From Takakia lepidozioides (Eukaryota; Plantae; Bryophyta), in NCBI GenBank assembly GCA_030704615.1, contig CM060734.1:37572001-37636000 (forward strand): a DNA stretch of 64,000 bases, read 5' to 3'. Shown here piece after piece: positions 1,828 through 58,600 of the stretch; positions within the stretch are counted from its first letter, which is position 1, and each line of letters begins with the position of its first letter. The notes beneath the pieces were generated by a model that did no database searches, was not told the origin of the DNA, and saw only the letters and a program-made list of their open reading frames with translations. A program made the translations under genes and the position numbers.

Positions 1828-3090
1828 AGACCCTCACACTTGTCATCGATGTCAACTAAGAAACTCAAAAGCAAGAGAAAGAGATAAGAACATGAGAATC
1901 CCTAAACTCCAAAGGCACCTTAAGCGATTGGGGAAGAGGGTCATGCGCCATCACCACCCGCAACAAGCCGCCTCCACAAAGCACATAAGCAATGAAGCAA
2001 AGCAGGCACAATCGCAAGGCACTAGAAAGGAGGGAGAGAACTTCCCATCATAAGCATCCTTGCTAAGCACAGAAAAAGCCAGAGGAGGGAAGATGCCACT
2101 GCATTCATAGCGGTGTTTCCCGCTGCAAGAGAGACAAGGAGCCGCCTTCGCGCCCCCCCAGGCGCTCGTCCAACATGGGTACGACACCACAAACGGGGCA
2201 GCCACCGAAGCACGTCCGCCATAACACTCTCCTCGTGAGCTCAGAAGCACAACACGTGCTTCTGACAATGGGAGAGACGACATAGGGTTGTCCCCCGATT
2301 ATTCATCCGTGGATGAAAAATAGTAGGACGAAACCGTATACCCTGACGGATTTCATCCGCAGCAAGGTTAAAAATAGGTTTTGGGGTAGGGGTTAGGGTT
2401 TCCACCGTAATTAATCATAATTAGGGGTAGTAAAGATCAATTCTAGGCCATAATCACATCATCCATAGACAGATCACTTGTGTCAGGATGAAGAAGTAGG
2501 GAATATCATCCGTGGCAACGCCTTACCTCCATCTAGGTAATTCTATCATTCCTCACCAAACCATCCGGTATGGATAAAAAGAGTCAATAAAAGAGGAATG
2601 AAAAATTATCATCCTGGTAGTTTTTCATCCAGTACGGATGGAAAAACATGATGTTGTTGGCAACCTCCATAGAGGTAATTCTTTTCTTCCATGGTGACTT
2701 ATCCGGTATGGATGAGAGTCAATAAAGGAGGAATGAAAAGGCCAAAAGAACCATCCTAGAGGTAATTCAGTGTCCATCCTGGTGGCTCAACCGGTATGGA
2801 TGAAAAAACCTGATAGAGAATGAGAAAACAAGAAGTCAACATTGATAGCAAACTGCCAATTCCCAGTAGAGAGGGAGACAGAGGGAGAGAGGGGGCACCC
2901 ACCAACCAGCCCCTGGTATGGCAGTCCCTTATGGAGTGAGTGTGGTATGCACTCACCCCGTAAGGGAGTGCATACTAGACCCCTTCATAAGTTTTCTCCC
3001 TCTGTAATATAGTTTCCCACCCTTGGACACATTTGCCATTGGGGCAGGAAAGTCCTACATCCTCTCCACAAACTTGCGTAAGCCTTTGAT
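1828..3090 (-). repeat. Direct repeat copy A (pseudo-LTR-like), downstream of the PLE RT
   Basis: Nearly identical to 11046-12305; both start AGACCCTCACACTTGTCAT and give near-identical 110-aa and 66-aa ORF translations. Confidence 0.95.
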
Positions 3091-4909: not shown

Positions 4910-5359
4910 CACTACAACAGATTGTGGCTTTTATGACTCCCATGGGTGCGCAGTCATGACAAATTTGTGGCAGAAATGCCATTTGCAGTCGTAAAATGCT
5001 TTTGAAGTCATAATGCAGGTCTAGGGAAGGCGTATATGCGACTGTATGGCTCCGGACTCTGCGCAACACAGGTCAAACATGTTTGACCACGAATATTGGC
5101 ATGGCAGATATGACTACCAGTCACGGTCATGGCTACACTGGAATGACGTGTATATATTGCTTCATGACTCTCACTCTAATGCATTCTGCCAGATCATCAC
5201 ATGGATGAATCACTACATGACTGCACGTGTCGACACATGCTTTTCTATTATATATATAATATATGAGTATTTATATTTTGAAAAAACGGAGACTCTGACC
5301 ACTAGAATGAATTAAAAAATAAAATAAAATAAACAAAGTGCAAAAATATTTAAAAAAAA

Positions 5360-5570: not shown

Positions 5571-5705
5571 TCAAAAAGGGGCTTTTAGGGTTTACAAAAA
5601 GGTTAAAAAACTTAAAAAGTTGCCCATCACGGTAGCGTGAACAAACTTAGAGCAAGCGGGAGGGGAGAGAGAGAGAGGGCTGGGACTTAGAGCGAGCGAG
5701 CGGGA

Positions 5706-6761
5706 GTGAGGGCAAACATGCATGGGAGGCCCACAGTTGGAGCAACCTTCGCATCTGAAGCAATCAACCCTAGAAACGCTAGGGTATGTGTGGGAGAAAG
5801 TGTTTTCGCCAAAGTTCATGGCACATCCTTCTACGAGTGGATGGAGGATGCGGCTGGCCAACATTATGGAAAAGTGTTCCATGGGTCAATGACGATGCTT
5901 TCTCTCACATTGATGCAGGATATTCTGAACACATACAGTTGGTTCAAGGGACTTGGAAGCATTATAGACGTTGGAGGAGGTGTGGGAGCGTGCATGGAAA
6001 TGTTGGTGAAAAAGTATCCGAGCATTCAAGCCATCAGCTTTGACCAACCCCATGTTGTGGAGCTGGCTCCTCACTTACCTGGTATCTCCATCGCCTACGC
6101 GTATTCCCTTGGTTTTTCAAGTTCACTGATTTGAAGATGTGAAATGTGCTCAATTTGTTGTCTTCCTCCTTGGAGGGTTCTTAGTTCTATTGACTAAATC
6201 TCTTCCTTTCCCTTGCGTGGCAAAAAATAAAATAAAAATGTGCTCAATCAGTAAATGCTGCGGTAAGGATCCCTAGGATTCAGTGACCACCAGTTGCGCT
6301 TTGCAACATGAGTAGGAAGACTGCGGACCTCTTTGGTGTCCAACAATTCTGTACCATGTTCTGTAGTCAGGCTGGGCCTTCTTCTGGTGTTGCAATTAGG
6401 GGGTGTTCGAACTTCGAACAAATGACAATCATGACGCAACGTGTATACATATAGGTCGTAAGTGGAATCAGATGTACCGGTTCTGTTGAATCGACATTGA
6501 GAAGGTTACTTGCGAAAAGAACTTCGGTATTCAAAGCAGGATTACCATTGGAATAGTTATGAAGAGGCAGAGAGAGAACCTGAGCTTGGACCACAATCAT
6601 AACTTGATTCTACGAGTGTGACCAAAAACCTCCTCATATTGTTCAATATACGTAGGGCATTCTGGGGTAACCATGGGTGCATTGTAATGGGTGCAAGAGT
6701 GAAGCTAGTCGGTGGAAACATGTTCGAGAGCGTGCCCTCTGCAGATTCTACCTTCCTGAAG
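5706..6761 (+). pseudogene. Plant class II O-methyltransferase (COMT-like, Methyltransf_2) fragment, two exons
   Basis: SIIDVGGGVG...KYPSIQAISFDQPHVV..AP, then a GT donor at 6082. A 65-bp exon at 6697-6761 reads VKLVGGNMFESVPSADSTFLK; its acceptor is mutated to CAA. N-terminal dimerisation domain and last exon (WILHDW) not found. Confidence 0.85.
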
Positions 6762-7180
6762 GTTCGTTTTGCCCTTTACTCTTGGGAATTTTTATAACTA
6801 GTGCATCGAATCCATCATAATCATTCCCGAAGTAAGAGTAGAGTACTTATCTACATTCCAAGATCTCTGGAATCATTCCAGCATCAACTGTAGTGCTGCC
6901 ATGCACATCTTTTTGCTTGTATAAGTCGTTATACATTTGTGTTGACCTCCCAAGCTTAGCTGCTGCAGGCAACCTCTGAACCTCTAATTTGAGATCCTTT
7001 CCCAGCTTGTAACGTACATGATATTAAGTCAAATAGAAGTCAACTGGAATTTGCGAGCTCTTGAAGCAAATGATGTGACAAGGCTTAGGTTTCGGCTGGG
7101 AGCTCGCTGTTCTTGGGAGAGTCAGCTTCGTCTTAGCAGGCCGTGTTTCAATCTCTACCCGCTCGGCTCTGATTTTACAG

Positions 7181-8525
7181 CACGAAGCAGAGCTGGCATG
7201 AGTTTCTTAAAGATCCTTCACGATGGTGGGACAACCGCAATCGCAAGGTGTGGCTTTTTCTTAATGTACGATGTGAAGAAGTTTGTCCATCTTGCAAATG
7301 TGGGTTGTTGGCTCCTGTTAGTACCATGATTTGGTATTCTTCCTGATGTTTACAAGGTTCTTGGGAGAGTTAGCTTGGTCTTAGTAGGCCGTGTTTCAAT
7401 CTCTGCCCACTCAGCTGCACCGTGGTGGTTCTCACTGACCAATCCGACATTACCTAACTACAGACACAAGCAACACACACAAGAGGTCCTCTTGGGTTCA
7501 TGGTCAGTCAAATCCTCCATGGGTCATGACACAAGGTCGAGGACAATGTGGTGAGGGCACCTTCTTCTTCGACCTATTTCAGCCTGTTTTGCCCTCTCAT
7601 CAGACTCGGCCCTTCATTTGCAGCACGGAGCAGAGCTGGCATGAGATTTTTAAAGATCCTTCACGATGGTGCGACAACCGCAATGGCAAGGTGTGGCTTT
7701 TCCTTAATGTACGATGTGAAGAAGTTTGTCCATCCTGCAAATGTGGACTGTAGGCTCCTGTTAGTACCATGATTTGGTATTCTTCCTGATGTTTCAAGGT
7801 TCTTGGGAGAGTCAGCTTGGTCTTAGCAGGCCGTGTTTTAATCTCTGCCTGCTCATCTGCACCATGCTGGTTCTCACAAACCAATCCGACATTACTTGAC
7901 TACAAGACACAAGCAGCACACACAAGAGGTCCTTTTGGGTTGATGGTCGGTCAAATCCTCTATGGGTTCTTCTTTGACCTATTTCAGCCTGTTTTTCCCT
8001 CTCATCAGACTCGGCCCTGAGATGCATATTGAATTATATGAGTTAGCTCGTTGCTCATTGATAAGTAGGGTTGGGGGTGTTTGCTGGAATGATTGCTGTA
8101 TGCATGATTTTGTGCAGAGGCATAGATAGCCGAAGGAGCAGGGATAGAGTGTGGAAGAGGGCCAGATTTCAAGCTCCAGATTATCTATGATTCCTTGTGG
8201 AAGGATAGATACAAGAAACCTGCATGGGTAGATGGTGAACTGGAAGCCGCAGATGTAGCGGCACAATTGATAAAATCAGGCACTGCTAATAAAGGCACCT
8301 TCTTCAACACATTTCAGCCTGTTTTTCCCTCTTATCAAAACCGGCCCTAAATATCAATGTCTGCAAGTTAGCTGGTTGAGTGAATCTAGTTTGGAGTGAC
8401 TTTGACATGATATTGCCAATGTGACAACATGAAAATATCGAAAAACAGTTAACGAAGATGAGGGGAAGCTGTGGAATGAATATTTTTCTAACCCCAGTCA
8501 ATGGTGGGACAACCGAGGCAAAAAG
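7181..8525 (+). pseudogene. Captured, duplicated exons encoding OSB-type PDF motifs
   Basis: 7181-7247 QSWHEFLKDPSRWWDNRNRK|GT; about 7438-7525 NPTLPNYRHK..EVL/WVHGQSNPPWV; duplicate at 7624-7967; third half-motif about 8450-8525 KLWNEYFSNPSQWWDNRGKK|GT. Confidence 0.75.
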
Positions 8526-9026
8526 GTAAATGCCTGTTGGATTACAGAGAGTAGCAGATGCAATTGAGAATAAGAACTAGTGTGATAAGTTGAGTTGGGT
8601 GTTTGCTGGAACAAATGTAGGCTGTCATTGTCAGCTGTTAACAGCAATGCAAGGATATATACATGATCTGTGCAGAGGCATGGATAGCTGAAGGAGCAAG
8701 GATAGAGTGTGGGTCCAGATCATCCAAGAGAGCCGGATTTCAAGCTCCACATTACCAATGATTCCCTGTGGAAGGATAGCTACAAGAAACTTGCATGGGT
8801 AAATGGTCATGGGTAGATGGTAGATAGTTTGGAGTGACTTTGACATGATACTGCCAAAGTGACAGATTACAGAGAGTAGTAGACGCAATTCAGCAAGGCA
8901 CTAAGGCAAACTCTCCTTCCCCGTAAGTGTGTGTTTTGGTATCTGAGTGAATAAATATGTTATCTAAGAATATAATTTCAAAATTCGTTATTTAATAATG
9001 TGTCACTGTCCCCTGTTGGTCAGAAG

Positions 9027-9080: not shown

Positions 9081-9418
9081 ATTAAATCCCCCAACACCCC
9101 CCCCCACAGCGACGCGTGTCAATTGATATGAGGAACCACGTGTCAAAATCGCGATGCGACACGTGCTGACGTCTGATTCCCTCCTCTGTAGTTGGGATGG
9201 CGTCGCAGTCTGACACGTGGCGTGTCTCTCTTACACAGCGGCTGACATGGACCCGTTCAATCATTCAGTAGAGCCAGCGTGTATGACTACCCCCATAGCT
9301 GCTCAGGCGCCACGTCACAGCCACGCTGGCGAGTCATATCTGCCATGCCACAACTGACTAGGGTTTTACAACTGTAGAGTCATGAAGTCGTAAATGGCTT
9401 TCATAATTGCATTTGCAG

Positions 9419-11045: not shown

Positions 11046-12305
11046 AGACCCTCACACTTGTCATGGATATCAACTAAGAAACTCAAAAGCAAGAGAAAGA
11101 GATAAGAACATGAGAATCCCTAAACTCCAAAGGCACCTTAAGCGATTGGGGAAGAGGGTCATGCGCCATCACCACCCGCAACAAGCCGCCTCCACAAAGC
11201 ACATAAGCAATGAAGCAAAGCAGGCACAATCGCAAGGCACTAGAAAGGAGGGAGAGAACTTCCCATCATAAGCATCCTTGCTAAGCACAGAAAAAGCCAG
11301 AGGAGGGAAGATGCCACTGCATTCATAGCGGTGTTTCCCGCTGCAAGAGAGACAAGGCGCCGCCTTCGCGCCCCCCCAAGCGCTCGTCCAACATGGGTAC
11401 GACACCATAAACGGGGCAGCCACCAAAGCACGTCCGCCATAACACTCTTCTCGCGAGCTCAGAAGCACATCACGTGCTTCTGACAACGGGAGAGACGACA
11501 TAGGGTTGTCCCCTGATTATTCGTCCGTGGATGAAAAATAGTAGGACGAAACCGTATACCCTGACGGATTTCATCCGCAGCAAGGTTAAAAATAGGTTTT
11601 GGGGTAGGGGTTAGGGTTTCCACCGTATTTAATCATAATTAGGGATAGTAAAGATCAATTCCAGGCCATAATCACATCATCCATAGACAGATCACTTGTG
11701 TCAGGATGAAGAAGTAGGGAATATCATCCGTGGCAACGCCTTACCTCCATCTAGGTAATTCTATCATTCCTCACCAGACCATCCGGTATGGATAAAAAGA
11801 GTCAATAAAAGAGGAATGAAAAATTATCACCCTGGTAGTTTTTCATCCGGTACGGATGAAAAAACATGATGTTGTTGGCAATCTCCATAGAGGTAATTCT
11901 TTTCTTCCATGGTGACTCATCCGGTATGGATGAGAGTCAATAAAGGAGGAATGAAAAGGCCAAAAGAACCATCCTAGAGGTAATTCAGTGTCCAACTGGT
12001 GGCTCATCCGGTTTGGATGAAAAAGCCTGATAGAGGATGAGAAAACAAGGAGTCAACACTGATAGCAAACTGCCAATTCCCAGTAGAGAGGGAGACAGGG
12101 AGAGAGGGGACACCCACCAACCAGCCCCTGGTATGGCAGTCCCTTATGGAGTGAGTGTGGTATGCACTCACCCCGTAAGGGAGTGCATACTAGACCCCTT
12201 CATAAGTTTTCTCCCTCTGTAATATAGTTTCCCACCCTTGGACACATTCGCCACAGGGGCAGGAAAGACCTATATCCCTTCCTCAAACTTGCTTAAACCA
12301 TTGAT
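11046..12305 (-). repeat. Direct repeat copy B (pseudo-LTR-like), upstream of the PLE RT
   Basis: Near-identical to 1828-3090. Confidence 0.95.
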
Positions 12306-25994: not shown

Positions 25995-28900
25995 TCAACC
26001 TTGTTCTCCGCCCGAGGTTGCATTGTCTTCATTGTTTGACTGTTGATTGGCCTCATCCAAATTTGCTCGTGCTTTCTCCGCCTCCACCGCGGTAATTTTC
26101 TTAGAGCTATTACGTGTCATGTTTTTTCTGGCGGGCATTGTCCAAACGACAGAGTTAATGTGAATCCACTGAGGGGGATCATCTGGATTGAACTCCCGAA
26201 CTTTGGACCAACAATCTCTGTACCTGTCCAAATCGGAAGGGCTACCTCCTTTTTTGGGTCTCCACCATTCGACGTGAACCTTTTTAAAATTCTTGGATCC
26301 TTTGTCGCGGACCACATCTGATATTGCCATTCCCATCCAAACTGGAAACGTCACAGTATCTACTGGTCGAACCAAGACGAAGAATCCGTTCTCAATGTCC
26401 TTGAACGGATTTAGAGGCTGCTTCGGTCTATCACACCGGGGGCCACAATACGGCTCCATGACTTCATCTTCTTCCGACAGATCATCCTCCACAGGTGTAT
26501 GGATTTCGGCTCTGTGGTGGTTGACAGCCCACTTGGTTGAGGGCCAAAAACCCTCTTTAAGCGCGATTGAATGTCGTGATTCTCTAGGAATGGGAAGATC
26601 AAGTTCTGCAAGGATTGCTTCCCAGTATTGATCATACTGTATCATGATGTCACGATAATGATCGTCAAGCAACATCCATTTCTTCCAGAACTCCCTGTAT
26701 TTTTTAATTCCAGTTTTGATAAAAGACTGTTTATCGGATGAGTCATCTCCCACACCCCAAATTGGTGTTTTTTTTACAGCCCTGGGTTGTACTGCTACAG
26801 GCAACTTTGGAGATCCATCGGGATTCGACTTCCACATCTTCACCGCATTTTTTTTGGGGAGCCACTCATAATCAGTAGCAAACTTCTTGAACTTCATGAC
26901 AGGCCAACCATCTTCATCTACATAGAATCGAAATACATAATACATGCATTTCTGTTTGCCCAACTAAAGCCTCTTTTCCATCGAGAATGCAACCGTCCAC
27001 ATACGCCTTGAAATCTGGCACCTCTTGAATGATTTGAGGAATAAAAAGCAGATCTTGAGATATCATAAAAAACCTCATAAGATCGGAGAGAACGTAGATG
27101 TTAATTTGCTTCAGCTTCTTCGATAAATAACTGAAGAATCCGTCGATGTCCTCATGGGTATGGCCAACCATGAGAAATCCCATCTGAATCTCCTCAAACA
27201 CTCCTCTCACAGCTAGGAGCGCCAGCATCCACCTGTTTTTGTTTTCCTTCACGCAGTTGTCCAACTGCAGGTAGAGTCTTCGCGGAAGTGAGACTTTTCT
27301 TTTTTTCTTCTCCTTATCGCCGAAAGGTTTCAGGACGTCGAGACACCTCGAGTTACGCTTCATGAGAGATTCGAAAAAGGAATTATGAGGTGGGTGGTCA
27401 AAGATGTTACGACTTTTGTGGCAAGAGGGCTTCTCTAGTTGGCGGAGGCATCTTGCTAGAGAGCCAATCGTGAAGTTCGGGTCTCCCAGCCAGAAGTCCA
27501 GAGAGTACTGTCCGTAGGCTCCGTCCCCGTAGCCGTGGGTGACCATGCCGGTTAGCGAGATTGGAAACTGACCTAAGCCAGAGACCATCTTGTTCGTCGT
27601 CTGCAACCTTGGAATAGCTGTTGTCATGGTTTTAGTCATGGTTATCTAGAATTACCTACTTCTAGATAACTAGGACATTTTAGATATTTATATTTATATT
27701 TTGTGTGTTGGGACTTCATTTGGTCTCACATGCCAAGTGAGGTGTCGAGCCTCACTTGAGACATGGAGATAGGTTTTCCCCTTGTGAGTGTTGAGGAGGC
27801 TCATATTCTTGTAGTTGAGCCTCCATGAGCTTCTCTCACCTCCATAGCTCTAGGTATTGAGAGGGAGTGTGTTGAGGGCTTTGTAGGGTGGATTCCTTTA
27901 GCAAAGGTGCCCTTGGCTTGACTTAGTTTATGTGATAGAGTGGATTTCACTTGGAAGGACTAGGGCTTGTTCTTCATGTGATTGCTTCATGCTTTGAGAG
28001 CTTTCGTTGTCTTCTACTTCTCTCATTTCTCATCTCTTATCACTACAAGAAGATTGTGGTATAGCTTTCTAGGATTGTGTGCTTAGATTGTGTGGTGGAC
28101 AACGATGTATGTTGTGGCACGATGCTTAGGTGCACGACACTGTTTTCCGATGATCCATCTTGTCATGAATGATGCAGAGGAACTCGGATGGCATCATAGC
28201 TGACTCATTCCTCCAGCTGTGATAGAGTCTCTTGCAAGACTCCTGAAGCCTAAGGTGCTTATCAAGTGCTTTCTTGTGCGAGGCCTGCTCATCGCTACGT
28301 TTGACCGACTTTTTGATTAGGTCTTTGAGCATCTCATAGTCTGTGCATTTGGCAAACGTGCTACCACTTTTTCTAACCTCGACATTGGGAAAAATCCGTT
28401 GTCTGATTCTGCTGACGGCTGCATGGGAGATAGGCTTCAACCCACATATTTTATTCGTCTGCAAGATAGATAGGGGGAAATGAACCTTGCGTGATCACCC
28501 GAGCTTTAATAGTGAGAGGTCTGATACATTGCGTGGAAGCAAAACAGGGAAGGTCCCTAAAAATATAGAATTCGGAAAATGGTAAAAAAAAAAAAAAACT
28601 GACCTCACACTCCTCATGAATTTTTTTCCAGTTCAGTTCAGGTGGCAGAACTCGAAGAGTATCTCTCCGTCCGTCTCCAATACAACGGGTCTTATGAGGC
28701 ATGAGATCGGAATTTCCGTTTATAATCGACATTAAGTTTCCTTCAGCTTGACGAGTTTGTGGACGGGGCCGTTTCACTCCGGAATTCCCGTGCAATGATG
28801 TAACCACACCCTCTCTGCTTAATTTTTTGTATTCCATGTAGGTTGAACGACCGATTCCGTGAATTGTCCACCAAGTAGTCTCACACACATCAACACCCTC

Positions 28901-32900: not shown

Positions 32901-35900
32901 ACGTGGTCGAAGAAATCATTCATTAGTAGGACAATAAACTCAGTGTTTTCAATTAAAAGGATTATGCAATGATTGATCCTTGCGCAATCGCGCGAATTTG
33001 ACTCCGTAGTAAACTGCATTGGATGGGAAATTGAAGATGTGATGCGAAAGAATGCCCTGAAGAAGCACGCGCGATTTGGTTGGTACTTGTATTCTATTTT
33101 AGGCAGGCATATATTCTCGTGAAGGAGACAATCCCGAGACAACTGTGCTGTCTTCCTCCACTGAAGAAGTGGGGGGAGACAATGTAAAGGATAACGCTGA
33201 TTCTAAAGACGTCTTCAATAAGGAGATTTCAGAAATAGACTCAGGGGTGGGATTCAGTCGTGTGGAGGGGGATATGCCATTACGGATGTCACCATATCAA
33301 GGTTTAAGCCAACGAGTTAGAGACATTGTTGATGGTTAGGCTTCTAGGGCATTGGTCGGCGATGAAAACTTTGTTGAAGTGAGTATTGCAGATTATGAGC
33401 TGTCCTGACACTTGTATAACCCAATTTATAACAAACTTGATATAACATCAGAATCTTTTACCAATGGAACTATTAACCTATTGCACAGTGATAGTCTCGT
33501 AAATGAATCGAAATTTATACGGAAGTCTAATCATCCATATTTTTTGTAGATCCGTGAGTCCAATACGGAGGAAGTAATACATACGAGAACAAACGACACA
33601 CAACAGCGTACAATGTAGAAACAATACGACTTGAGAGTGAGGATATCGTCGCCCAAGGTGGCAGCTTCAGAAACCGCGGGCGATTGCGCGAGGTTACTTA
33701 TGGGAGGGGTCGACAAAAACATACCGGACGGCGAAAGACCCATCGCCGGTGGAATTGGCGGCAAAACCTCATCCAGCTTGGAGCAAGTGCCGCCAAAGCT
33801 GGTACTTCATTCTCCGCCTTCTGCTTTCTTTTTTGCATTCCATTGCGAAAATATTTCAATGAATTAATAATTATTTCCTAATGGGCAGGATGATATGATC
33901 TATCCACCACACGACTATTCCCAAGCTGTCAATCCCGCGGATTTATTTGCTCTTCCAATGGGTCCAAATGGATGTCAGCCCGGATATTATGTCCTGGTTC
34001 TGGATGTCGGGTTCCTATGTGAGGTTTACCTCCAGAATGGGCCAAAAACCCCTCCCGCAACTCAACCTTGCATCTCCGTTGGAAGATTTAAGTTAGCAAT
34101 GCGACATGAGGTGGGAGACTTCTTCAAATGGGTCGTCAAGAAGTTTTGGGTCATCTTATGGAACACTGACAAAGAAGAGACTGTCGTGGATTTCAAATCA
34201 GCCTTGTTCGGGAGGAACGCCCACAAGGTCATGCATTACAGTTTCGATCTATGTGTGGAACATAGACTTACTTTCAATACATATTGGCCTACACTACCTA
34301 AGGCCCCAATCTACTTCAAACGACTTTACGACTTGTTCGTAGACCCTGACTCTAAAGCCTATAGGTCTAACACCCTGCTTATCGATGTCGTTGGGAACAT
34401 GTACAAGTCTTTCCTCAATCCTTTGAGCCTGGTCATCTTCCTACCTAAATACGAAGCACTTGTAGATCCATACAAGGATGATTTTTGGATGGGTCATCTG
34501 AAGCCCCACTTGAAGAAGTTGAAGCATTCAAAAATGGACACTTGGGCCTTCAATGAGCATAACCCTTTTGGAATACCTAAGGATATCTACTTTCAGGATG
34601 CTAGAGTGAAATTCATTAATGGCTGGGACTTTCCATGGCCTAAGAACAAGGAGGAATGGGATGCACATCTAAAGTACCTAGAGGCCCTGGAAGTGGAACA
34701 TGAGATATTAAAGTGACTAGTTTTGAGAATGTATTGGGATTCTGAGGTCATTGAGTTCCTTATCTGTTCATGGGATTCTTCTTTTCTTGATTTACTTAAT
34801 TGTCTTTATCACTCCTTCACAGATCCGACAGCCTAGATCTCCACCTGTGAGGGGACCTCACTTGATAATTTTTGACGTTAATGGAGTGCTATGCGAAATA
34901 ATGAAGCGCCAGAGCCCAGGACCTGCTCCACGTTTTTCGGAATCTGATTACAGCATTCCTGCTATTGTTGGGTATCGGCAAATCTTTAGACAGAAGATGT
35001 ACCGGGAAGTTTGGCAAGAGTTACACAAGCACTTCATTTTAGGTATCTGGAGCTGCATGGTGCTTAAAAACTTAAATGCCATTCTGGATTTGCTCCTACG
35101 TGGTCTTCCACGGCCAGCGTTCATCATGTCGCAGGAGGATTGTATCATTTGCCCAAGCAATTTGCACCCAAATTACCGAACGGAACAAGATCAACCTCAT
35201 GTGTTCTTGAAACCACTCCTTAAAGTATGGCATAGTTCTGAAGGTTTTTACAATCAGAGTAACACTCTGTTGATTGATGATACGGCTTTGAAGTGTTTGC
35301 TGAACCCTCCTGAATCTTATCTTCTTCTCAAGACTTTTGAGAACATCGACGTCGACGATTTCTTCCTTCTCAAACTTAGAGATTTCTTGCTTAGCTTCTT
35401 GAAATTTGAGAACGTCTCAAGCTTCTTGAAAGCAAGGAGAATATGATTTCCACCTTTCAAAATTAACGATCCACAATTCATGCCTCTTTTTGACTATATT
35501 GACAATTCACAATATCGTGATTTCCGAGTAAATGATAAGTGAATATTCGCGTCCTACTGTGGACACAGTTTACTATTTAAAATTGATTGTGAAGACCATG
35601 GAATTTCAGTCTTCTTCTGATATTCTTTTGCTTTGCATGGAAATTGTTATATTGCCAAACCATATGTAACGGTCAATGGATTCGTTGTTGCTTTATGTCC
35701 GTCGATTTCTTTTCGGAACCACGCGTGGTCACGCGTTCTTCCAACTCAACTTTGTTGACATATATTTCATTTGCAGGTATGCCCATATCAATATGTTCTC
35801 CATGCCACAAATGCATCTCCAATTGGCGAAACAATATCGTCTGATATTGTTGACGATGTAGAAATGATCAGGCCAGAAGCTTTCCAAGGACCTGACAACT

Positions 35901-41759: not shown

Positions 41760-44010
41760 GACAGTATTTTTGGCCAACCTCTAACATGCTTTCACCCAAA
41801 ACTCCCTTATACGAAGGGGCCAAAGTGAGTAGACTTTCAACCATCTTGTTGTTGCTGAATTTGTAAATCCGGTTTGGCATAAGTAATGTGGATATGTCCG
41901 CCATAATGCGGACTATTGCGGACTACATCCTTGCCCCACATTTGAAGCCGAGAATGCCACGATCAAGAAAAGAGGCAAGAGCAACCTTGGATGCTGTGGG
42001 GATGGGCTATAAGATTTTTCATGCATGTCCATGTGATAAAACCCTGTACTACGGAGAGGATGCGAAACTCACCAAGTGTCCAAAGTGCAACAAAGACCGA
42101 TATCGGGATGATATTTAAGGGAAGAAAGCCCCGCGCAAGGTATACCCGCGCCACAATACACTTGCATATTGCATTCTACCTTTTTGCATCCACTACAAGA
42201 TGTAAGGTTTTACTTAGAGATATGAATGACACTGATTATGATATGGGGCCGACATGGGGATGGTGCCAGAAAATGCACTACTTTCCAATCATCCCGCGAC
42301 TGCAAGCACACTACCGAAGCCCCTCATTGGCACAACTGATGAGATGGCACGCCTCGCATCGGAGCCCCTCGAGAAAGGTGTGCGGGCCACAAGATTCACA
42401 AGCATGGAGGCACACTGAAGAGATGTGGCCTTTTCTCTTGGAGGACCCACGACATGTCCGCCTCGGCTGCTCCTCGGATGGGGTCAACCCATACTCTGTC
42501 CAGTCATGTAGTCACTTGGCCGGTGACCATGGTGAATTACAACATCCCTCCGTATCTTTCAATAAAAAAAGGCCATATCATGTTGGCTGCCATTGTACCG
42601 GGTGAGTGTTCCCAATTCATGCTTATTATTTATTTGGATTTTACATTAATCTTCTTCTCTTTGGCGCAATTCCAATGGAAGATTGATGAGTGACGTAATC
42701 ATGTAGTAAGATGTGTCATTCATTATGAAGTATAATTAGCATGGTAGAGCATTGAAACAATTAATGGTGTGAATGTCTCATACATGGACACGTACTTGCG
42801 TCTTCTGCACCGTAGTGGGGTAGATGCACATGGAAACATTTTGTCTTTCCTAATGTGGCGGAATGTCTACAGGACTTATTGTTTGCTCGGGGTTGAGCAC
42901 TAAAGGCTATCACGCATGCCTACATTGTGGCGATGAACTTGATGCACAAAGCTCCAGCAATCTTCGCAAGATGGTGTATCCTGACTACCGCAAGTTTCTT
43001 CCTATGAGCCATCATTGGAGAAGAAGAGACAAACACTTGTTTGATGACAAAGTGGAGTTACGTCCTCCACCTGTGACACCATTCAGGCACTTTTGGGAAG
43101 ACCGATGGAAGGAGGCCTATCCGGAGAGGTCCTGTGAAGTGGAGGTGTCCGGCATGAAGCGGCTTTCAATCTTCTACGAGTTGTCATATTGGGCGGTACA
43201 TATTCCACAAAAACACCATCAATATTGCTATGCATGTATGGGACCTGAAGATTCGTCATCTTCTAGATCCCATGCATATTGAGAAGAATGTTTGCTCGTC
43301 CCTTTTCGTGTTCTTCATGGCACGCCGACAAAGAAGGGAGTGGCTGCAAAATGAGTTTCTCTCGATGTTAGAAGGAACTTGAGGAGCAGGGTCGCATGTC
43401 CCATCTATGGGCCGAAGAAAATGGTGTGGACCCAAAGGGTGTTGTACGGTGGAAGTATAGGCGTGCACCTTGACAATGGACAAAGGAGGAATACAAGAAA
43501 GTGATAGCCACCATAGGAGTTGTCTGAACACCAACTGGTTATGGGTCATCCCTCCGTATGAAGTTCGACGAAGATGGGGTCCATGGTTTGAAGTCTCATG
43601 ACTACCACAATCTATTGCAAGACATCTTGCCCATTGCAGTAGGTGGGACATTGACTCCCGAGGTTCGCGAGACAGTCTATAGATTGGGAGCATTGTTCCG
43701 GTGGATTTGCTCCAAAGAGCTGGAGGAAGCGGACTTTTCACGCATGAAGAAGGAGGCGGCGGTGGTCATGTGTCTGTTGGAGATGCACCTTCCTTCCTCC
43801 TTCTTTGACATCCAAGTGCACTTGGTAGTGCACTTAGTGGAAGAGGCTTCGATTTCCGGCCCCGTTCATTCTCGGTGGATGTACTACCTTGAGCGATATA
43901 TGAAGACTTTGAAAGCACATGTAAGACAAATGGCACACCCGGAGGGTAGCATGGCGGAGGGGTATACATTGCAAGAGGCTATGTTCTACTGCGTGGAGTA
44001 CTTGACAATT
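41760..44010 (+). pseudogene. CACTA/EnSpm TnpD-like transposase (Transposase_21 + DUF4218), degenerate
   Basis: HACPCDK..Y..KCPKC...RY, YFPIIPRLQ, LMRWH, RHVRLG.SSDGVNPY, WPV...YNIPP, SGLSTKGYHAC, DPMHIEKNV, GLKSHDYH, FFDIQVHL, GPVHSRWMY..ER, PEGSMAEGY. Confidence 0.95.
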
Positions 44011-44689
44011 GCTCAATTATGTTGGCTGTTTCAAATGCCTCCCCTACTGTATTATGGGGTAGCATATCCACTTTCTTTTGTAATTCAGGTCTTAGTCCAC
44101 TCATAGACTAAGTCTTCTGTAATCGTGGTTCTGGTACAACAGCCAACTTTTTCATCATTAACTCCATTTTCTCCATATATTCTTCAACAGTTTCATGCTT
44201 CTTTTGCCTCAACTGTTGTAGACTCCCATACACTTCATCCTCAGTTTTGCTTGTCCTGAACCTGTTTCGGAATGTTGTACTAAGACCATTCCAAGTTAGG
44301 AAATGATTATTAGGAAACCTTGCATATCATTCACTTGCTTTCTTGATAAGTGAACAAGGAAACAGTCTCAATTTGGCATCATCGCCATTTTCATTGTTCA
44401 CTGTACACATGTGCTCAAATTGGCTGATGTGTACATCAGGATCCCCTTTTCCTGCATATATTGGAAAATGTGGCCCATGTTGGAGGTACCACCATCTGTG
44501 GCCCTACACCCTGCTCTCTGACAGGTGTTGGTCTTCCTGTAGGTGTTGGTCCTTGAGGATCTGCTATTGTAGTGATGGAACTCCCACCAGGTGTTGGCCC
44601 CTGAGCACTCCCTGTTACTGGCCCCCCTGTACTTGTAGTACCCTCAGCTCTAGTTGCACTACTTACCATTTCTGCCTTCAACCCAAACC

Positions 44690-47109: not shown

Positions 47110-48140
47110 CTGGTATAAGGTCTGTGCATCCATGTTCTTCCCATCCAGACCCCTCCATTGCCTCCCTGTAAAATTGAACCAACCCACCATCTTCAGCAAC
47201 ATCAAAAGACAGCCATAGTGCTTGAGTGATTACTCACATTTGATGCCACAAATGCACGATGCCAGCATATTCTCAGTAGTTCACAAGGGAGAAAAGGAGG
47301 GAGGTGTGAGAGAGACCGTTGAAGGGGGTCCTTCGAAGGACCCATGCACCTATATACACAACCTAGAGCAACGGAGGTTCAGTGGGTAGAAGAGTCAACT
47401 AGCAGCTGCAGATGGTTTCACCTTTGGGGTGATAAGCCCTCATCCTTGCTTCCTCCCCCTCAAAAACACCCAGTGGCAGTCATCCTTGAGATGGATTGCG
47501 CATGGCTTCAAACACAGAACTGCTGGATCTAAACTCTGGACAGCCATTTGGCAGGCATGGAACATCTTAAGACCCTTTCTACGTAAATCAGAACCTAGAA
47601 CCTATCGTGAAGTACTCAGACAGCACTTGTTCCTCAACAATAACCAACCCTCTAGGGAACAAAAGTCGCACGCAAGGAGGTGGTCTGCTTGGGATGTCTG
47701 TGGTATCTCTCAGATCAGAGATCTTTGGGTCAACAACACTCTTGTTTCCCAAGATGTTGTCTCTGATAAGGTGGGTAAGCGGCTGGCCCTACAGGAGACC
47801 ATGTCTGTAGGTAGCAGGATATATAAAAAACTGAGAATCAGAAAAAGCAGACATGTTGAAGCTGTACCAAACTCTACCAAACAAACAATACAGCTCACTC
47901 TACATTCGGAGTATAGAATATGTCACAACTATGACTGGTCAGTGAAGCTTACCTGCTCCCGTTCCACAGCCGGGTCACACTGTTGTACTGGTATGGTTTT
48001 CCATTTCAGCCCACCCCAAAACAACCTGATAATGCAGTATTGCGTGGTCTAATGTGACAGCAACATGAGCGTCTAGTAGATGGCCAGTCTTCCCAGTTAA
48101 ACTGCTGCAAAGCTACCTGCTTGAATCATGCAGGTGGAGT
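47110..48140 (-). pseudogene. Decayed duplicate of two exons and intron of the beta-propeller gene, interrupted by a LINE fragment
   Basis: 47110-47240 GGLVQFYREAMEGSGWEEHGC versus GGLVEFYWEAMEGWGWREHGC (53920-54050); 47950-48140 resembles 54495-54730; intron motif ACATGTTGAAGCTG shared. Confidence 0.8.
47340..47790 (+). mobile_element. LINE ORF2 C-terminal fragment
   Basis: SLRWI...GSKLWTAIWQAWNILRPFL....P....EVLRQHLFLN...GISQIRDLW, typical of plant L1 post-RT region. Confidence 0.55.
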
Positions 48141-48234
48141 TTTGACTTGAACATGCAAGATTGGGCCTAATATAGATACCCCTCTGAAACCGTGTTCGAA
48201 ACAATGGGCCTTCTTTCAGGCATGTTGCTTCCTC

Positions 48235-51200
48235 TCACCAGTAATCCCCACAAGAACAGACCCCATCTTTGAAGTGGTGAAAGCGATTGGCATCCCTCAC
48301 AACAACTGGTCGCTCAACAATCTTTGAGATGAGCTTGGTTACAGTGTGGCAGTCACCACACACCCGAAGGTTTTTGATGATACGGATAGGCGTCCCAGGG
48401 GGTGTGCTGATAAGCCCAAAGGCAATGGCTAGCTTCTCACTGTGGTAGCTAAGAGAAAATTCCTTACGCTCCTCCTCAGCATCGTGCAATACAAAGCTCG
48501 TGTCAGGCATGTAACCAGCCTCCTTCATTTGCCCAGACAATCTCTTCAGCTCAGCATGGATTTCCTCAATTTGGGGATGCAATTTGTCCTCTACAACAAA
48601 TGTATGGACGTGGTTGTCCACCTCAATGCAGCTGCGCCCTGGCTCCTTCCTGATCCCTCTGTCCTGCATCATTTTCCTCACCTTCGCTGTATCCTCCCAC
48701 CTGCCGGCAGCGGCATAGATGTTTGATAGCAACACATATATCGCAGGATCCTGTGGATCCAATTCGAGAAGGAACTTCACTGCACGTTCTGCTATCCCTA
48801 CATTGCCATGAATTCTGCAGGCACCAAGCAAGGACCCCCACACAGAAGCAACTGGTTTGACAGGCATTCTGTTAATGAAGTCCTCTGCCTCATCCAACTG
48901 CCCAGCACGACCGAGGAGGTCCACCATGCAGGCAAAATGCTCCACGACAGGTGTGAGGTCATGATCTCGACTCATGTAATCGAAGTAGTGACTGCCTTCA
49001 TCAACTAGGCCCACATGGCTACAAGCAGAAAGAACACTTACAAAGGTGATACAGTTTGGCTTCAAACCTTCTTGTTGCATTTGTTCAAAAAGCTGGAGGG
49101 CCTCCCTACTACGTCCATGCTGACCATATCCTGCGATCATCGCACTCCATGAAACAACATCTTGTTCAGCCATATTATTGAACACTTGACGCGCATCCTT
49201 CAAGTCCCCGCATTTGGCATACATGTCAACAAGGGCAGTCTGCAGTATGACATCTTGCACAATTCCAGCTTTGATGATGTCAGCATGTACTTCTTTGCCC
49301 TTCTCCAGGGCTGCCAGAGTGGCACACACGTTCAGAATAGAAATGAAGGTGACTTTATTGGGCATCACCCGTGTCTGCATCATATGCTCATACATCTTAA
49401 AAGCCTCCCTAGCACACCCATGCTGAGAATATCCACCGATGATCGCGCTCCATGATACCACGTCCGGCTTCAAGCCTTCCTGTTGCATTTGTTCAAATAG
49501 CTGGAGGGCATCCCTACCGCACCCATGCTGAGCATAGCCTGCTATCATTGCATTCCACGTGACCAAATTTCGCTCAGCCATATTGTTGAACACTTCATGG
49601 GCTTCCTTCATGTCCCCGCATTTCGCATACATGTCGACGAGGGCAGTTTCCAGAATCATGTCTGGTGCAATTCCAACTTTAATGAGGCCGGCATGGACCT
49701 CTTTGCCTTTTTCCAGGACTGCTAGGCTGGCACATGCATTGACAACACCAATGAAAGTGACATTGTCTGGCGTCACCCCTTCTTGTATCATCTGCTTATA
49801 GATATCAAAAGCCTCCCTACCACACCCATGCTGTGCATATCCTGTGATCATGGTGCTCCATGATACTACATCTCGTGTAGCCATCTTGTCAAACAGACGA
49901 CGCGCATCCTTCATGCTTCCACATTTGGCATACATATCCACCAAGGTATTCTCCAAAATGATATTTGGCGCAATTCCTGCTTTGATGATATCAGCATGGA
50001 CCTGTTTTCCCTTTTCTAGAGCTGTAAGGCCGGCAAAAGCCTTGAGAACACAAATGAACGTGACCCTGTCAGGCATCACCCCTTCGTGTATCATATGCTC
50101 ATACATTTCAAAGGCCTCCCTACCACACCCATGTTGAGCATATCCTGTGATCATTGCACTCCATGACACCACATTTCGTTGAGCCATATTGTCAAACACT
50201 TGACGTGCATCCTTCATGCTCCCACATTTGGCATACATGTCCGTAAGAGCAGTCTCCATTATGATGTCTGGTGCAATTCCACATTTGCTGATATCAGTAT
50301 GGACCTCTATACCTTTTCCGAGGTCTGCCAGGCTGGCACAGGCCTTGAGAGCACACGTGAACGTGACCATGTTGGGCATCACCCCTTCCTGTTTCATTTG
50401 CGTATAGATATCATAAGCCCCCTGACAACACCCATGCTTCACATATCCTGCCATCATTGTGGTCCACGTAAACACATCTCGTTCAGGCATTTTCTCAAAT
50501 ACTTGGCGTGCATCCACCAGGCTCCCACACTTGGCATACATGTTAACAAGGGCGTTGAGCAGAAAGATATTTAACTTGAATCCACTTTGGACAATGTGGG
50601 CATGTACCTGCTTTCCCTCTGCTAGGCCTTGGATGTTGATGCATTCCCGCAAGAGACACTCATAAGTATCAGAGTCTGCCGAAATGCCTCGTTCCTCCAA
50701 AATGTGCAGGGCCTCTTTCAGTCGTCCTGTCATACATAGCTTCCTCACATCACCATACTGCGCTTGACCTTGGATCATGGCAGCTAACTCTGTTTTCACC
50801 CAAGGAGGGGTTGATAAAGCTTCAATCCAAAGACCCTCGCTTGAACGCTTATGTCTGAAGTCTGGCGATTTTGGACTCTTCTGTGAAAACCATCAATGCG
50901 CGACTGAGCAGCCATAGCTTAAACCACGACCTCATACAGATCAGGTAACAACCACCGAGCTTCGACAAGAAGTGGGCTTTTACTCAGGACATTCAGTTAA
51001 AAAGGAAAACACTCATCAGTGTAAGCAATTGGAGATGCAAATGAGTGCACAAAACATCAACATGCCAGCTTCAATTACAAGCTCTCCCAGATTCATTCAG
51101 AAAGTTAGCCTCACCTTATCAAGCCTGTTGTCCCACCACTGTGAAGAATCTGAGAAGAACTCCCGCCAGACCTGATCTTTGCTCATTGTTTGACCTGCAA

Positions 51201-51558
51201 GCAAACACCAATTAAACATATACTCCTTGGGCAGCTGCTACTTGTTGCGTCTGATTCAGGAACGGATCGCTGAGTCTCCCACACTTTCCAGAACCCCCAA
51301 AATTGCACAAAACCCACAAACTTTCACAAAGATAGGCATGTGTTCACCTTTCTCCCGTATCCGTGTAAGCTGGGGAGGTGCTACAGCCATCATTCGCAAG
51401 GGTCTGGGGCCCGACTGTGCCAAGTTGGATATGCATTTCGCACCCACAGCCTGGCCCGATAATACTTTGCACGATGAGACTATACTCCTCCGTTCACCGC
51501 AAGGATTGTCAAGGACCTTGGGAATGGGCTCTCCCAGCGGGCTCAGGAGAGCTGCCAT
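48235..51558 (-). CDS. PLS-class PPR-E-DYW RNA-editing factor with N-terminal targeting peptide and OSB-type PDF motif; exons 51558-51348, 51194-51115, 50880-48235 (978 aa)
   Basis: Long P-L-S array (MYAKCG..DAR.VF), PGRSCIE, HSEKLAIAFG, CGDCH, C-terminal DYW. Three exons have GT-AG sites and compatible phases. Confidence 0.93.
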
Positions 51559-52689
51559 CGCCTGTGCATGTGACGAGCGCAGAGTGAAGGGACGGTCCGT
51601 GTTTCTCCTTCTGACTCCTCAGCGGGCACATATGTTCCCTTGTGTAATACACAATAAAATTCTCTCCCTCTTCCTTTCCTTCATTTGATATGTTTTACAC
51701 TGAAACCCACCGGCATTGCCTTTTTTCAGTTGTTAAGCTATGAAAACGATGATCACAACGTGACATTGCTGAATATAGTCTTCTCAACTGTTGCAAGGAG
51801 TTTGGAGGATGATGCAGTATTGTGCTGGAAAGAAGTTGATATGAAACAAGCAGTCATGAGACAGATGCACTCACCATCAGGGAAGGACATTCTCAAGTGT
51901 CAAGTAACTATTATAAAGTAGCTGAACGTTATCACAGCGTGTACATAGAAACATGAGTATTTTACAAAGCGGATGCCTCATTGGGACTGAGCGTCAAGTT
52001 AGTAGGGGACTTTCCCGTTCAAGCTCTAAACGATGTTATCTCCATCTTCTACCTATTCAGACGCACAGACCAGCACACCAGGCCAAGCTTGGAGATTAAT
52101 CTGCACAAACGAAGTGCTTTCGCTGGACAGAACCTACAGTCATTGTAGGCTACCAAGGGGAATATATATATGATGGTGGATTGACCACCATGAGACCCCA
52201 GAATAATTTCAGGGTTGGATCCTACTAAGATCACCCAATCAGATCTAGACTTTCACTATGTACTGATAGAATGTTGGTCTTGATAAAATGCTGTACCTAC
52301 TGGGGAGAGGAATCTGTGAACTATGTGGGCATCAGTCGGCCTCTTTACCTCCCTTTTCCCCCTATGTCCCTATCTCCCTTTTTCTTCGTAAGCAGTAACC
52401 ATAGAACTGCCTGGGGTGCAATGGCCTCTGACCGTGCAATTTTAGCCCTGTAGAGTGCCACCACTCCCCATTTCTCATTACCTGACTTATTTGTTTCATC
52501 TGTAGGCTTCCTTGGTATGAGTCATATTCCATCACTCAGAATGATTACCTGTAGAAACTAGACAAAATGCCACTGTGTTGTGTTGGGAAGATACTTCTGT
52601 CACCTCGTCACCTGCCTGTTGTCCAGATCTTCACATCAAATTCTTCATCTTTGCAGAGAACTAGGAAACAGTATGGCAGTAGATAGCTA

Positions 52690-55600: not shown

Positions 55601-58600
55601 TCGATTAACTTAGGATATCTGGTGTTGGGCATATGTTGCAGCTGACCCCACCATCTGACCTTGAATTCATCTCGTCGGGAGCTTAGGGACGGAATGCCAA
55701 ACTCACCCCGAACAGCCACATTGCTGTTTTGGAGCTTGCTGACATACACTCCTTAAGCACCCCCACTTGAATGGATTCTAGAGACTTAGCCTGGTTGGAG
55801 TTATCAACCCATATAGCAGATCCGTTACTCCAAGGCAGGTCTAATAACGCGACAAAGCATGGTTTTCTTAACCTCAGAGTTGACCCCTCTGCAGTGGAAA
55901 AATTTAGTGAGAGCTTTGCCCTTGCCAGTTTGAACAACTTTCCGGATATGTGCAGCCCAATTACAATTGGAGGAGAACTCAACGCCCAGGTAAGTGTAGG
56001 AAGGGAGGACCGGGATCTCTTGGCTACCCCACTGCCACTTAAGATCACTTCCTCCCTCTCCTCTGTCGTTGAATGCTACCACTGCAAATTTGCTGACATT
56101 AGCCTCTAGCCCCCAAAGATCAAAGTATCTCTTCGCGCAATCAATCAACTCCTGGAGATTGGTTGGAGTCTCCCCTATGCCTGCGAAGTCATCCGCAAAC
56201 ATAAGGGCTGGTATGGTGGTATCACCCACCCTTAACCCAAATCCCTCACTTTCCACATCCTCGAGGAGTTGATTGATGAAAACATTGAAGAGCAGAGGGG
56301 AGAGAGTACATGCTTGAGCTACACCTTGGTCTATGTCAAAGAAGTTGGACTTCTGTCCGTTAACAGTGACACAGCTTTTGGTGTGAGCATACAAATTTTG
56401 GACAACTCTCCACATCTTTCCCTTGATCCCACAAGACCAGAGGCGGAACCATAGGCCATCTCTCCACACTGTGTCATAAGCCTTTTTGACATCCAGGAAA
56501 AAGACATAAGTGGGTTTCCCTTCTTTTTTCCTTCCCTGGATAATCTGGCTTAGAGTGAAGATATGATCCAAACAGCGCCTGTTTCGCCGAAAGCCAGCTT
56601 GGCCTTCGTGGAAACAACCTCTAGACTCCAGATCAACCTCGAGACGAGTACTTATAACTCTGCAGAATGTCTTGCCAACAGCATTGAGGAGCGTGATGCC
56701 ACGGTAGTTCCCCGGTTCTTCTCTGTCACCCTTCTTGTATAGATTGACAATGACCCCCTGTCGCCAGCGAAAGGGGATCATTTCAGTCTTCCAGATAAGG
56801 TTAAAGAGGAGAACTAGGGCCTCTATGATGGGATCGCCACCGTGCTTGATAAGCTCGTTGACAATTCCATCAGGTCCACCAGCTTTATATCCATTTAAAT
56901 GTTCAATTGCTTCCACAATCTCAGAAGAACTAATGGGAGCATTATAAGCCATTGAAATATACTCCAGTTCATCAGGGCTGTTTTGAATCATAGGAACAGT
57001 TTTTCCAACTGTGTCCCTCCATTCAGCAGAAGACCCCTCACTGTTAGACCTAGAAGTTCTGCCAAGGATACTGTAGTGAGTTTCAAAGGTTTTGACAATG
57101 TAAATCGATGAAGTCACCACTGCACCTTTAGTAGTCTTCAGCGCTTGTACTTGCTGACCGTTTTTCGGCTTGTACAAACGTTGAAGGGCCAACCAGAATT
57201 TCTTGTCAATACCACCATGGTGGTTTGAGTTTATTTCACTGTATAACTTGTCCCAGTATAATTTCTTCTGAGACCTAACAAGCTGATTGATATCTTTACG
57301 GAGCTGGTAGTACCTCGCCCACAATTCTCTGTTGGTTTCCAAATTGCAGCACTCTTTATAGAGGGCTCGTCTCTCAGCTATCTTGAGTTTAATCTCATTA
57401 GTCCACCAATTAACTGCTCTACCGCAGACAATTAGTTTCCTCCCAATGATCTTGTCAGCCACGGAGGAAACGAAACTCTCCCAAGAGTCCACTGCTCTTT
57501 CGACTTCATTTCTTGCGTTAACAGAGCGTGACTGAAGTTCTTGGAGCGATCGGACAAAATGAGGGAGAGCCTCTTGCAAGGCCTGGACGTACTCAGCCTT
57601 GACCTCCTCATTGTGGAATTTTTCTATGCGCCACTTCCGAATCGAACGTTTCACAGATCTCTTCGTGGTGGGAAAACACCTTTTGATCTCAGTCCAAACC
57701 AGGAAGTGGTCAGAGGTACCAATATCAGTTCTGTCGATCAACACATTGGCACACTGGGGGAACAAAATTTTGTCCATTATGATATAGTCCACAATGGAAC
57801 GTTCCCCAGTTTGGGGTTTCTCACGAGTCCACTGCACTTGGTCACCTCTTGTCCTGTTATTCAAGGTCAAAAGCTGAAGCTCTTCTAGACAGTTAATTAA
57901 CCGTCTGCCATTAGAATTCAGCTCGTCCTCACCAAAAGGTCCAATGATATCCTCCTGATGGATCCCTTTGCCCACCCGGGCATTGAAGTCCCCCAATAGT
58001 ACCACCTGACCTTTGGCAAGGAACGAAGCACAGTCCAGCTTTACATCTTCGAAGGCCTTGTCTGCGTCAGCACTAAGGGTCCCCTCTGTGGGCATGTAAA
58101 CACAACCAACAAAGAGGTCCTTTGTACTTATGCCGCACTTCAAATTCAGTTTTAGCCAGATACTATGCTCGTACCTCAAACCCTACAGAAAGACGTTGCT
58201 ACGTGGACTTTTGAACACTCAAAAGACACAAAAACAGCCACAAAGGTGCAGAGAAGCAGTCAATGTTCCTTGCACTAGCATATGCTTTGTGAATTAAAAC
58301 AACAATTTCCTTGACTTCACACCTTGAAATCCCTGGAAAAACTGGAAAGACTGCTTACCAGAAACTCCAGCAATCGACCGTTTTCATCGAGAAAGAAAAG
58401 TGCATCATCCACTGTGACCAGACGAGTCTCCCCGAGCAAACCAGGATCCCATGGAGGTCCCGCAATGACTTTTCTTCCTCCCTCCATTTCTGTACAATTC
58501 AGCCACCTCAATGCATCCCCAAGCCTTTCTCGCATCAAAAGATATCCATCGGTGTCAACAGCAAACAGACTGCCGTTGTAAACCCCAAGAACACCAGCAA

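Follow-up and report, generated by a model that had tools for sequence, protein, structure and literature searches.

The plant proteins closest to the gene described here belong to two types, of which the first comprises the PG-type PLS DYW editors such as Physcomitrium PPR56 and PPR65. Physcomitrium DYW proteins were reported to edit alone in E. coli (PMC6397227), in agreement with another account in which Physcomitrium editors work alone (PMC9459714), and MORF helpers are described as confined to seed plants (PMC13386178). Editing by PPR56 was reported to be inhibited by RNA structure (PMC10482289). The second type comprises the organellar OSB proteins. According to reviews, the PDF motif of OSB1 is sufficient for ssDNA binding (PMC6963530, PMC13393729), and OSB1 was reported to limit R-loops (PMC8330923). 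Fusions that add a nucleic-acid-binding or helper domain to a PPR protein, as this gene does, have also been described, namely RRM-PPR (maize PPR4), MORF-P and RRM-DYW (PMC9459714, PMC13386178). In contrast to those cases, the added domain here comes from DNA maintenance, resides on PLS-E/DYW editors and is found in dozens of paralogs per genome.

The window, that is, the whole 64-kb stretch of DNA analysed, contains a single long frame on the minus strand at 48235-50892. Joining three exons (51558-51348, 51194-51115 and 50880-48235; Table 1) gave a stop-free frame of 978 aa ending in DYW, in which a leader and a single PDF motif were followed by an array of 18 PLS repeats, by E and E+ and by a DYW domain that was intact. 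Between the PDF motif and the first repeat came a short linker and a helical cap (approximately 40 aa). Exon 3 translated alone yielded 881 aa, with Pfam matches for PPR, E, E+ and DYW. The first-pass annotation had placed the junctions at 51348/51194 and 51115/50880, where the frame indeed joined openly and both introns had GT..AG ends. Its ORF of 854 aa was recovered when counted from the GTG at 50799; counted from the ATG at 50778, the ORF had 847 aa. The leader was rich in S, A, P, L and R and contained four acidic residues; judged by this composition, it is a putative organelle transit peptide.

Table 1. Features of the gene and of its surroundings in the window.
Feature	Position	Strand	Remarks
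Exon 1	51348..51558	-	ATG and 70-aa leader; open frame, GT donor
Intron 1	51195..51347	-	153 nt, phase 1, GT..AG; retention would bring in-frame stops
Exon 2	51115..51194	-	PDF first half at 51180-51115; in-frame ATG at 51186
PDF motif, first half	51180-51115	-	in exon 2; 24.8 bits alone, OSB-only profile
Intron 2	50881..51114	-	234 nt, phase 0, GT..AG; splits PDF motif
Exon 3, coding part	48235..50880	-	PDF second half through DYW and stop
PDF motif, second half	50785..50880	-	start of exon 3; 32.2 bits alone
PLS-type PPR array, 18 repeats ending P2-L2-S2	48850..50673	-	Pfam PF13041/PF01535
E and E+ motifs with PG box	48535..48810	-	PF20431 at 691-753, PF20430 at 758-782 of exon-3 protein
DYW cytidine deaminase domain, HxE..CxxC zinc site, terminal DYW and stop	48235..48516	-	PF14432
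3' untranslated exon part	47952..48234	-	ends at GT donor; probable 3' UTR intron
LINE-type endonuclease and reverse transcriptase frame	55825-58182	-	
CACTA tnp2/DUF4218 fragments	41946-44106	+	
NIF-like phosphatase frame	34727-35446	+	
DUF7869	26914-27645	-	

To follow splicing, sequencing contigs from two runs, X1 and X2, were used, both of which were presumed by guess to be RNA. At 94% likeness, two X1 contigs joined 51115 to 50880 exactly, omitting 50881-51114. One of these (209 letters) was identical across 50700-50880 and had 28 letters on exon 2, a short side below the tool's mark of 31. No such joint was found among X2 contigs at 94% likeness; at 85% likeness, X1 and X2 each contained a related contig that was joined at the same place and carried six other letters. 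The proposed RNA check of the junctions was thus borne out for 51115/50880, in two X1 contigs, and left 51348/51194 unseen among the joints listed. A start inside exon 3, named earlier as the case that would overturn the gene model, is made unlikely by the intron-2 joint. A single exon-2 position differed in 78 X1 contigs and 33 X2 contigs at 85% likeness, which points to many expressed paralogs. At the other end of the gene, contigs of both runs matched 47952-48264 with one difference in 313 letters and stopped at the GT donor at 47952, the pattern that would arise from a spliced 3' UTR.

The 5' end of the model is open to another interpretation, namely that the protein starts at the exon-2 ATG (51186) or has a different leader, in which case it may lack a transit peptide. 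Among the joints listed for X1 and X2, there was no contig with intron 1 removed, exon 1 and intron 1 had zero cover at 94% likeness, which in itself speaks for neither model, and several database models (P0021, P0087 and P0398) start just ahead of the motif. Against this, intron 1 has canonical ends and preserves the frame, and related contigs covered exon 1 at 85% likeness. Furthermore, the metagenome loci L078-L080, which represent one gene close to the Sphagnum protein P0092, have the same acceptor context directly ahead of the PDF exon as intron 1, and the P0092 model itself runs on through this context into a leader. A wrong 5' end is accordingly considered quite improbable, and translation from the exon-2 ATG without the leader may nevertheless occur.

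The assignment of the gene product as a PPR-DYW editing factor held up, since Pfam matches were obtained for the PPR repeats, for E and E+ and for the full DYW domain: PF14432 aligned over its full length (1-93 of 93) with residues 789-881 of the exon-3 protein at an E-value of 2e-43, and the zinc motif HxE..CxxC was intact. The P2-L2-S2 end, E, E+, PG box, zinc site, terminal DYW and standard code residues are shared with PPR56 and PPR65; unlike in those editors, a PDF module lies here between the leader and the array, and the 5' part contains two introns. Of the P- and S-type repeats that precede the last S2, all 11 had standard code pairs (positions 5 and last). The N-terminal repeats of PPR proteins face the 5' end of the RNA target. 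Target prediction, which had been put forward as a follow-up, was performed with the general PPR code and gave nUAnAGnUGnAUAnGAnn upstream of the edited C, with the edited C four bases on.

Since Pfam has no model of the PDF motif (no Pfam or PHROG family covered it in the copies searched), it was tested in both directions, with a profile derived from PPR proteins and with one derived from OSBs. Alignment A1 consisted of eight PDF motifs drawn only from PPR proteins, and its profile retrieved 585 proteins from 3672 candidates, with named OSB2 and OSB3 proteins being numerous among the 120 listed. Conversely, the OSB-only profile was built from 63 motifs cut from 19 of 19 source-named OSB proteins, with bounds set by means of A1, and it gave 63.3 bits on residues 76-129 of the spliced 978-aa protein. 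When the first 160 residues were shuffled (1000 shuffles made, 742 scored), the best score was 7.2 bits. Thus, the OSB-type identity that had been read from the sequence was recovered with both profiles. In 284 OB-fold-linked motifs, 16 residues were conserved at a level of at least 75%, and the window's motif kept 13 of them; one of the three differing positions has Ser in place of a Pro that is 90% conserved. The net charge of the motif was only +1, which, like the Ser, counts against the single-strand grip proposed below. PPR-linked motifs contained more aromatic residues than OSB motifs (9.3 versus 6.9), and this enrichment may reflect a changed role.

Structure prediction suggests that the PDF motif forms a small domain. 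A homologous whole motif was modelled as a helix, short strands and a helix with a pLDDT of 89.6, and the window's exon-3 half folded alone had a pLDDT under 50. No solved chain matched the motif by sequence at E-values up to 10, Foldseek gave no structural match at E 0.001, and VIA-align found no clear solved match (best Z 3.0, rmsd 2.7, 45 aligned), which does not imply a new fold. With the 45-residue half motif as the query, there were two candidates, none of which was scored, and Atlas yielded no usable match. A likeness to mycobacteriophage gp49 (PF25690) from Atlas was discarded, as its scores of 0.76-0.82 were below the mark of 0.9 and profile searches gave no support.

In common with OSB proteins, the gene encodes a PDF motif of approximately 55 aa, and tandem copies are frequent in its family. 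The differences lie elsewhere. In OSBs the motifs are C-terminal, whereas here the motif is N-terminal (76-129 of 978) and is followed by an RNA-reading array and a deaminase. No SSB match was found in exon 3, exon 2 or the exon-1 frame, whereas named OSBs match PF00436, and tblastn found no OB match within the window; just 75 residues lie ahead of the PDF motif. Because an OB-fold is absent, the gene product is not an OSB. Classified by its sequence, the protein is an editor with an OSB part: the sequence tests for a DYW editor were all positive, and two tests for an OSB were negative.

It had also been guessed that similar fusions exist in ferns and other non-seed plants, and a large family was indeed found across clubmoss, peat moss and fern. 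With residues 1-130 as the query, 374 relatives passed, and 45 of the 120 listed carried a whole or half PDF motif, a share that is biased upwards because the query contained half of the motif. Among these 120, carriers made up 36 of 38 Diphasiastrum proteins, 2 of 2 Sphagnum proteins and 7 of 18 unnamed proteins, and there were none among the two Funaria/Ceratodon matches or the 60 gymnosperm matches, which come from two species (Cryptomeria, 0 of 11, and proteins with the prefix 'Gb_', which we take to be Ginkgo, 0 of 49). The A1 search matched 1222 representatives, and the 150 listed comprised 66 proteins with an OB-fold, 11 with PPR and 73 with neither. Among the 219 proteins listed for residues 1-130 and for the 585 retrieved with the A1 profile, 88 were PDF+PPR proteins. 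Fern members of the family are Adiantum P0154 and Pteridium P0136. An OB-fold was found in none of the 88; 25 had a DYW match (24 with the zinc motif) and 63 had none. In 87 of the 88, every PDF motif precedes the array. The sole internal case is Diphasiastrum P0131, with two PDF-PPR units in one chain, which may be a merged model. Six other proteins (P0222, P0224, P0229, P0236, P0249 and P0310) have 3-10 tandem PDF motifs with no OB-fold or PPR match, and some of them have leader-like ends. The fusion is a family, and the host of the window is itself probably a seed-free land plant.

In metagenomes, a PPR match in the motif's own frame was found at 55 of the best 80 of 419 loci. Most of the best 80 were intronless within the motif, in a ranking that favours intronless loci. 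Two high-GC contigs (L070:1304-1501 and L076:26-223) encode a PDF motif that is C-terminal and contains an insertion; neither PPR nor OB was matched in these loci.

The fusion proteins are present in public databases as hypothetical, and no published description of a PDF-PPR fusion was found; mention in subscription papers or supplements is possible. PDF and OSB are absent from the main text, as available, of a 2026 survey that covered 364 genomes for domain fusions of editing factors (PMC13386178), and neither term occurs in bioRxiv 10.64898/2026.10.24.761589. The available part of a 2026 OSB survey, which was restricted to proteins that have a PDF motif as well as an OB-fold, contains no mention of PPR (PMC13393729). 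Domain surveys could miss the module because it has no Pfam model and, in this gene, is split by an intron. The PDF-PPR-DYW fusion therefore appears undescribed, both types of component being already known.

Conservation was compared along the protein. Identity to 21 clubmoss proteins averaged 68% in the exon-2 half of the motif and 57% in the exon-3 half, versus 45-52% in the PPR repeats, 34% in the linker and 9% in the leader. For dN/dS, 36 of 80 metagenome loci were intact, and removal of near-copies left 22 distinct loci. The ratio was 0.15 for the PDF motif (0.20 without the search pattern), 0.36 for the next PPR repeats and 0.84 for the upstream region, values weakened by the selection of loci by motif likeness, near-saturated dS and poor upstream alignment. 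The PDF motif looks to be under purifying selection. These data bear on the view that the module is a passenger, present in the gene from which a PPR clade expanded and copied along with it, and has little role in editing. Early land plant PPR expansions have been attributed to retroposition-linked duplication (PMC13386178), 25 of the best 80 metagenome loci, many of them evidently broken, lacked a PPR match in frame with the motif, and decayed PDF pieces lie at 7180-8830 in the window. However, in moss, clubmoss and fern alike, conservation of the motif exceeds that of the neighbouring PPR repeats and far exceeds that of the leader and linker, and a mere passenger appears improbable.

The reading that we prefer, with a probability of approximately 0.55, is that the gene encodes a PLS-type PPR-DYW C-to-U editor in which the PDF module would serve as a built-in, sequence-blind anchor to single strands. 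Plastids or mitochondria are the predicted destination of the protein, whose repeats would read RNA 5' to 3' and whose DYW domain would deaminate one or a few C to U. Since the N-terminal repeats are oriented towards the target's 5' end, the module would lie far from the active site, placed to grip rather than to catalyse. At the 5' end of the track, it may act as a loading aid that holds the enzyme on single strands, and this grip would let the repeats win against RNA folding. The module is read in this way on the basis of its position combined with ssDNA binding by the OSB1 motif and the inhibition of PPR56 by RNA structure. The strand held may be ssDNA of the organelle, where nucleoids are transcribed, or the part of the transcript that lies upstream of the editing site, between which our expectation is split about evenly. 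OSBs prefer ssDNA to RNA, and this preference weakens the part of the proposal that concerns a grip on RNA. Going by OSB biochemistry, the module may help tether the editor to nucleoids, R-loops or ssDNA, as the first-pass annotation had suggested. Because Physcomitrium editors work alone, the module would be an aid at most; as, in addition, neither of the two Funaria/Ceratodon matches has it, it does not appear to be needed for MORF-free editing. Nor is it tied to catalysis, because most PDF+PPR proteins have no DYW match.

Those proteins without a DYW match would need a donor of the domain, which is one argument for a different role of the module as a protein-contact or stabilising cap. Such a cap would pack on the first repeats or recruit partners, for example, DYW donors for the DYW-less proteins or OSB-coated nucleoids. 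In the exon-3 model, the last PDF helix continues into the cap helix (residues 26-50, at low confidence), PPR-linked motifs are richer in aromatic residues, and OSB2 was reported to be a tetramer (PMC6963530). However, the residues that the motif retains are the ones conserved in OSB motifs, which are reported to bind ssDNA. Moreover, the length of the linker varies widely and up to four tandem copies occur, which is easier to reconcile with an avidity module than with a fixed cap. A cap or contact function in place of a single-strand anchor thus seems unlikely.

The protein could also act on DNA, with the PDF module holding organelle ssDNA, the repeats reading it with the code used for RNA and the DYW domain deaminating genomic C. 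Designer P-type PPRs were reported to bind ssDNA by the RNA code (PMC12733224, PMC9508816), bacterial DYW-like enzymes were reported to deaminate ssDNA, and the PDF motif binds ssDNA in OSBs. Nevertheless, the array, E, E+, PG box and DYW are as in ordinary RNA editors, most family members are without DYW, and activity of a plant PPR-DYW protein on DNA was not found among the literature matches listed. Editing of DNA is considered highly improbable.

A broader and doubtful proposal can be formulated, in which an undescribed PPR subfamily with an OSB ssDNA-binding module would run much of the organelle editing in seed-free land plants. Docked by the module on R-loops or on ssDNA in nucleoids, the editors would act on transcripts as these emerge. 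In seed plants, separate MORF helpers would have taken over this job, and the fusion appears to have been lost there. Seed plants are the MORF-bearing group, and none of their 60 matches carried the motif, as counted with the PDF-biased query in two species; this distribution also speaks for the single-strand anchor. The subject bears on how moss, clubmoss and fern lineages with a heavy editing load can do without MORF helpers, and on whether editing is coupled to transcription at nucleoids. A deletable module of 55 residues on a single-protein editor makes both questions testable in the E. coli editing system, and if the module raises editing on structured RNA, it would be a ready part for synthetic PPR editors.

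With regard to origin, the gene represented by L078-L080 has a donor at the same codon as intron 2. The intron positions that it shares with the window's gene, together with the mostly intronless loci, suggest an old intron-bearing founder with later retrocopies. A DYW tree was built from 36 of 40 chosen rows, four being dropped for lacking a DYW-type end. On this tree, the PDF label required two changes, and a single PDF clade was not rejected (p-AU 0.324). The rows nearest to the window's protein by path were gymnosperm proteins without PDF, with no strong support. The PDF module was probably derived from an OSB gene via exon shuffling, early in land plants.

Approximately 43 kb from the gene, at 7180-8830 on the plus strand, the window contains a decayed cluster of PDF half-exons. 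It includes a 443-nt tandem pair (7182-7247 and 7625-7690) akin to exon 2 and intron 2 of the gene. Two pieces of the cluster resemble the gene's DNA at 68-72%, the likeness extending into intron 2, and for three pieces (8156-8260, 8466-8531 and 8721-8810) the best match was the PDF motif of an OB-fold protein (P0384/P0336). Downstream of the cluster, there was neither an OB-fold nor a PPR frame. The decayed first halves have GT after the same codon as in the gene, and one of them is OSB-like; this piece hints, and only hints, that intron 2 predates the fusion. Likewise, it is only a hint that PDF exons move about in the genome.

The decayed PDF pieces adjoin an O-methyltransferase fragment (PF00891) at 5691-6131 on the plus strand, and both are enclosed by a perfect 19-nt inverted repeat (5097-5115 and 9332-9350). 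Possibly, they are gene fragments captured by a transposon. The cluster of fragments is flanked by a 1263-nt direct repeat (1828-3090 and 11046-12305, 96.6% identical) in which no clean TG..CA ends of an LTR were found. Other features of the window are listed in Table 1. Just upstream of the gene, the region 51878-52500 and beyond was matched by a 4695-letter X1 contig and a 1479-letter X2 contig.
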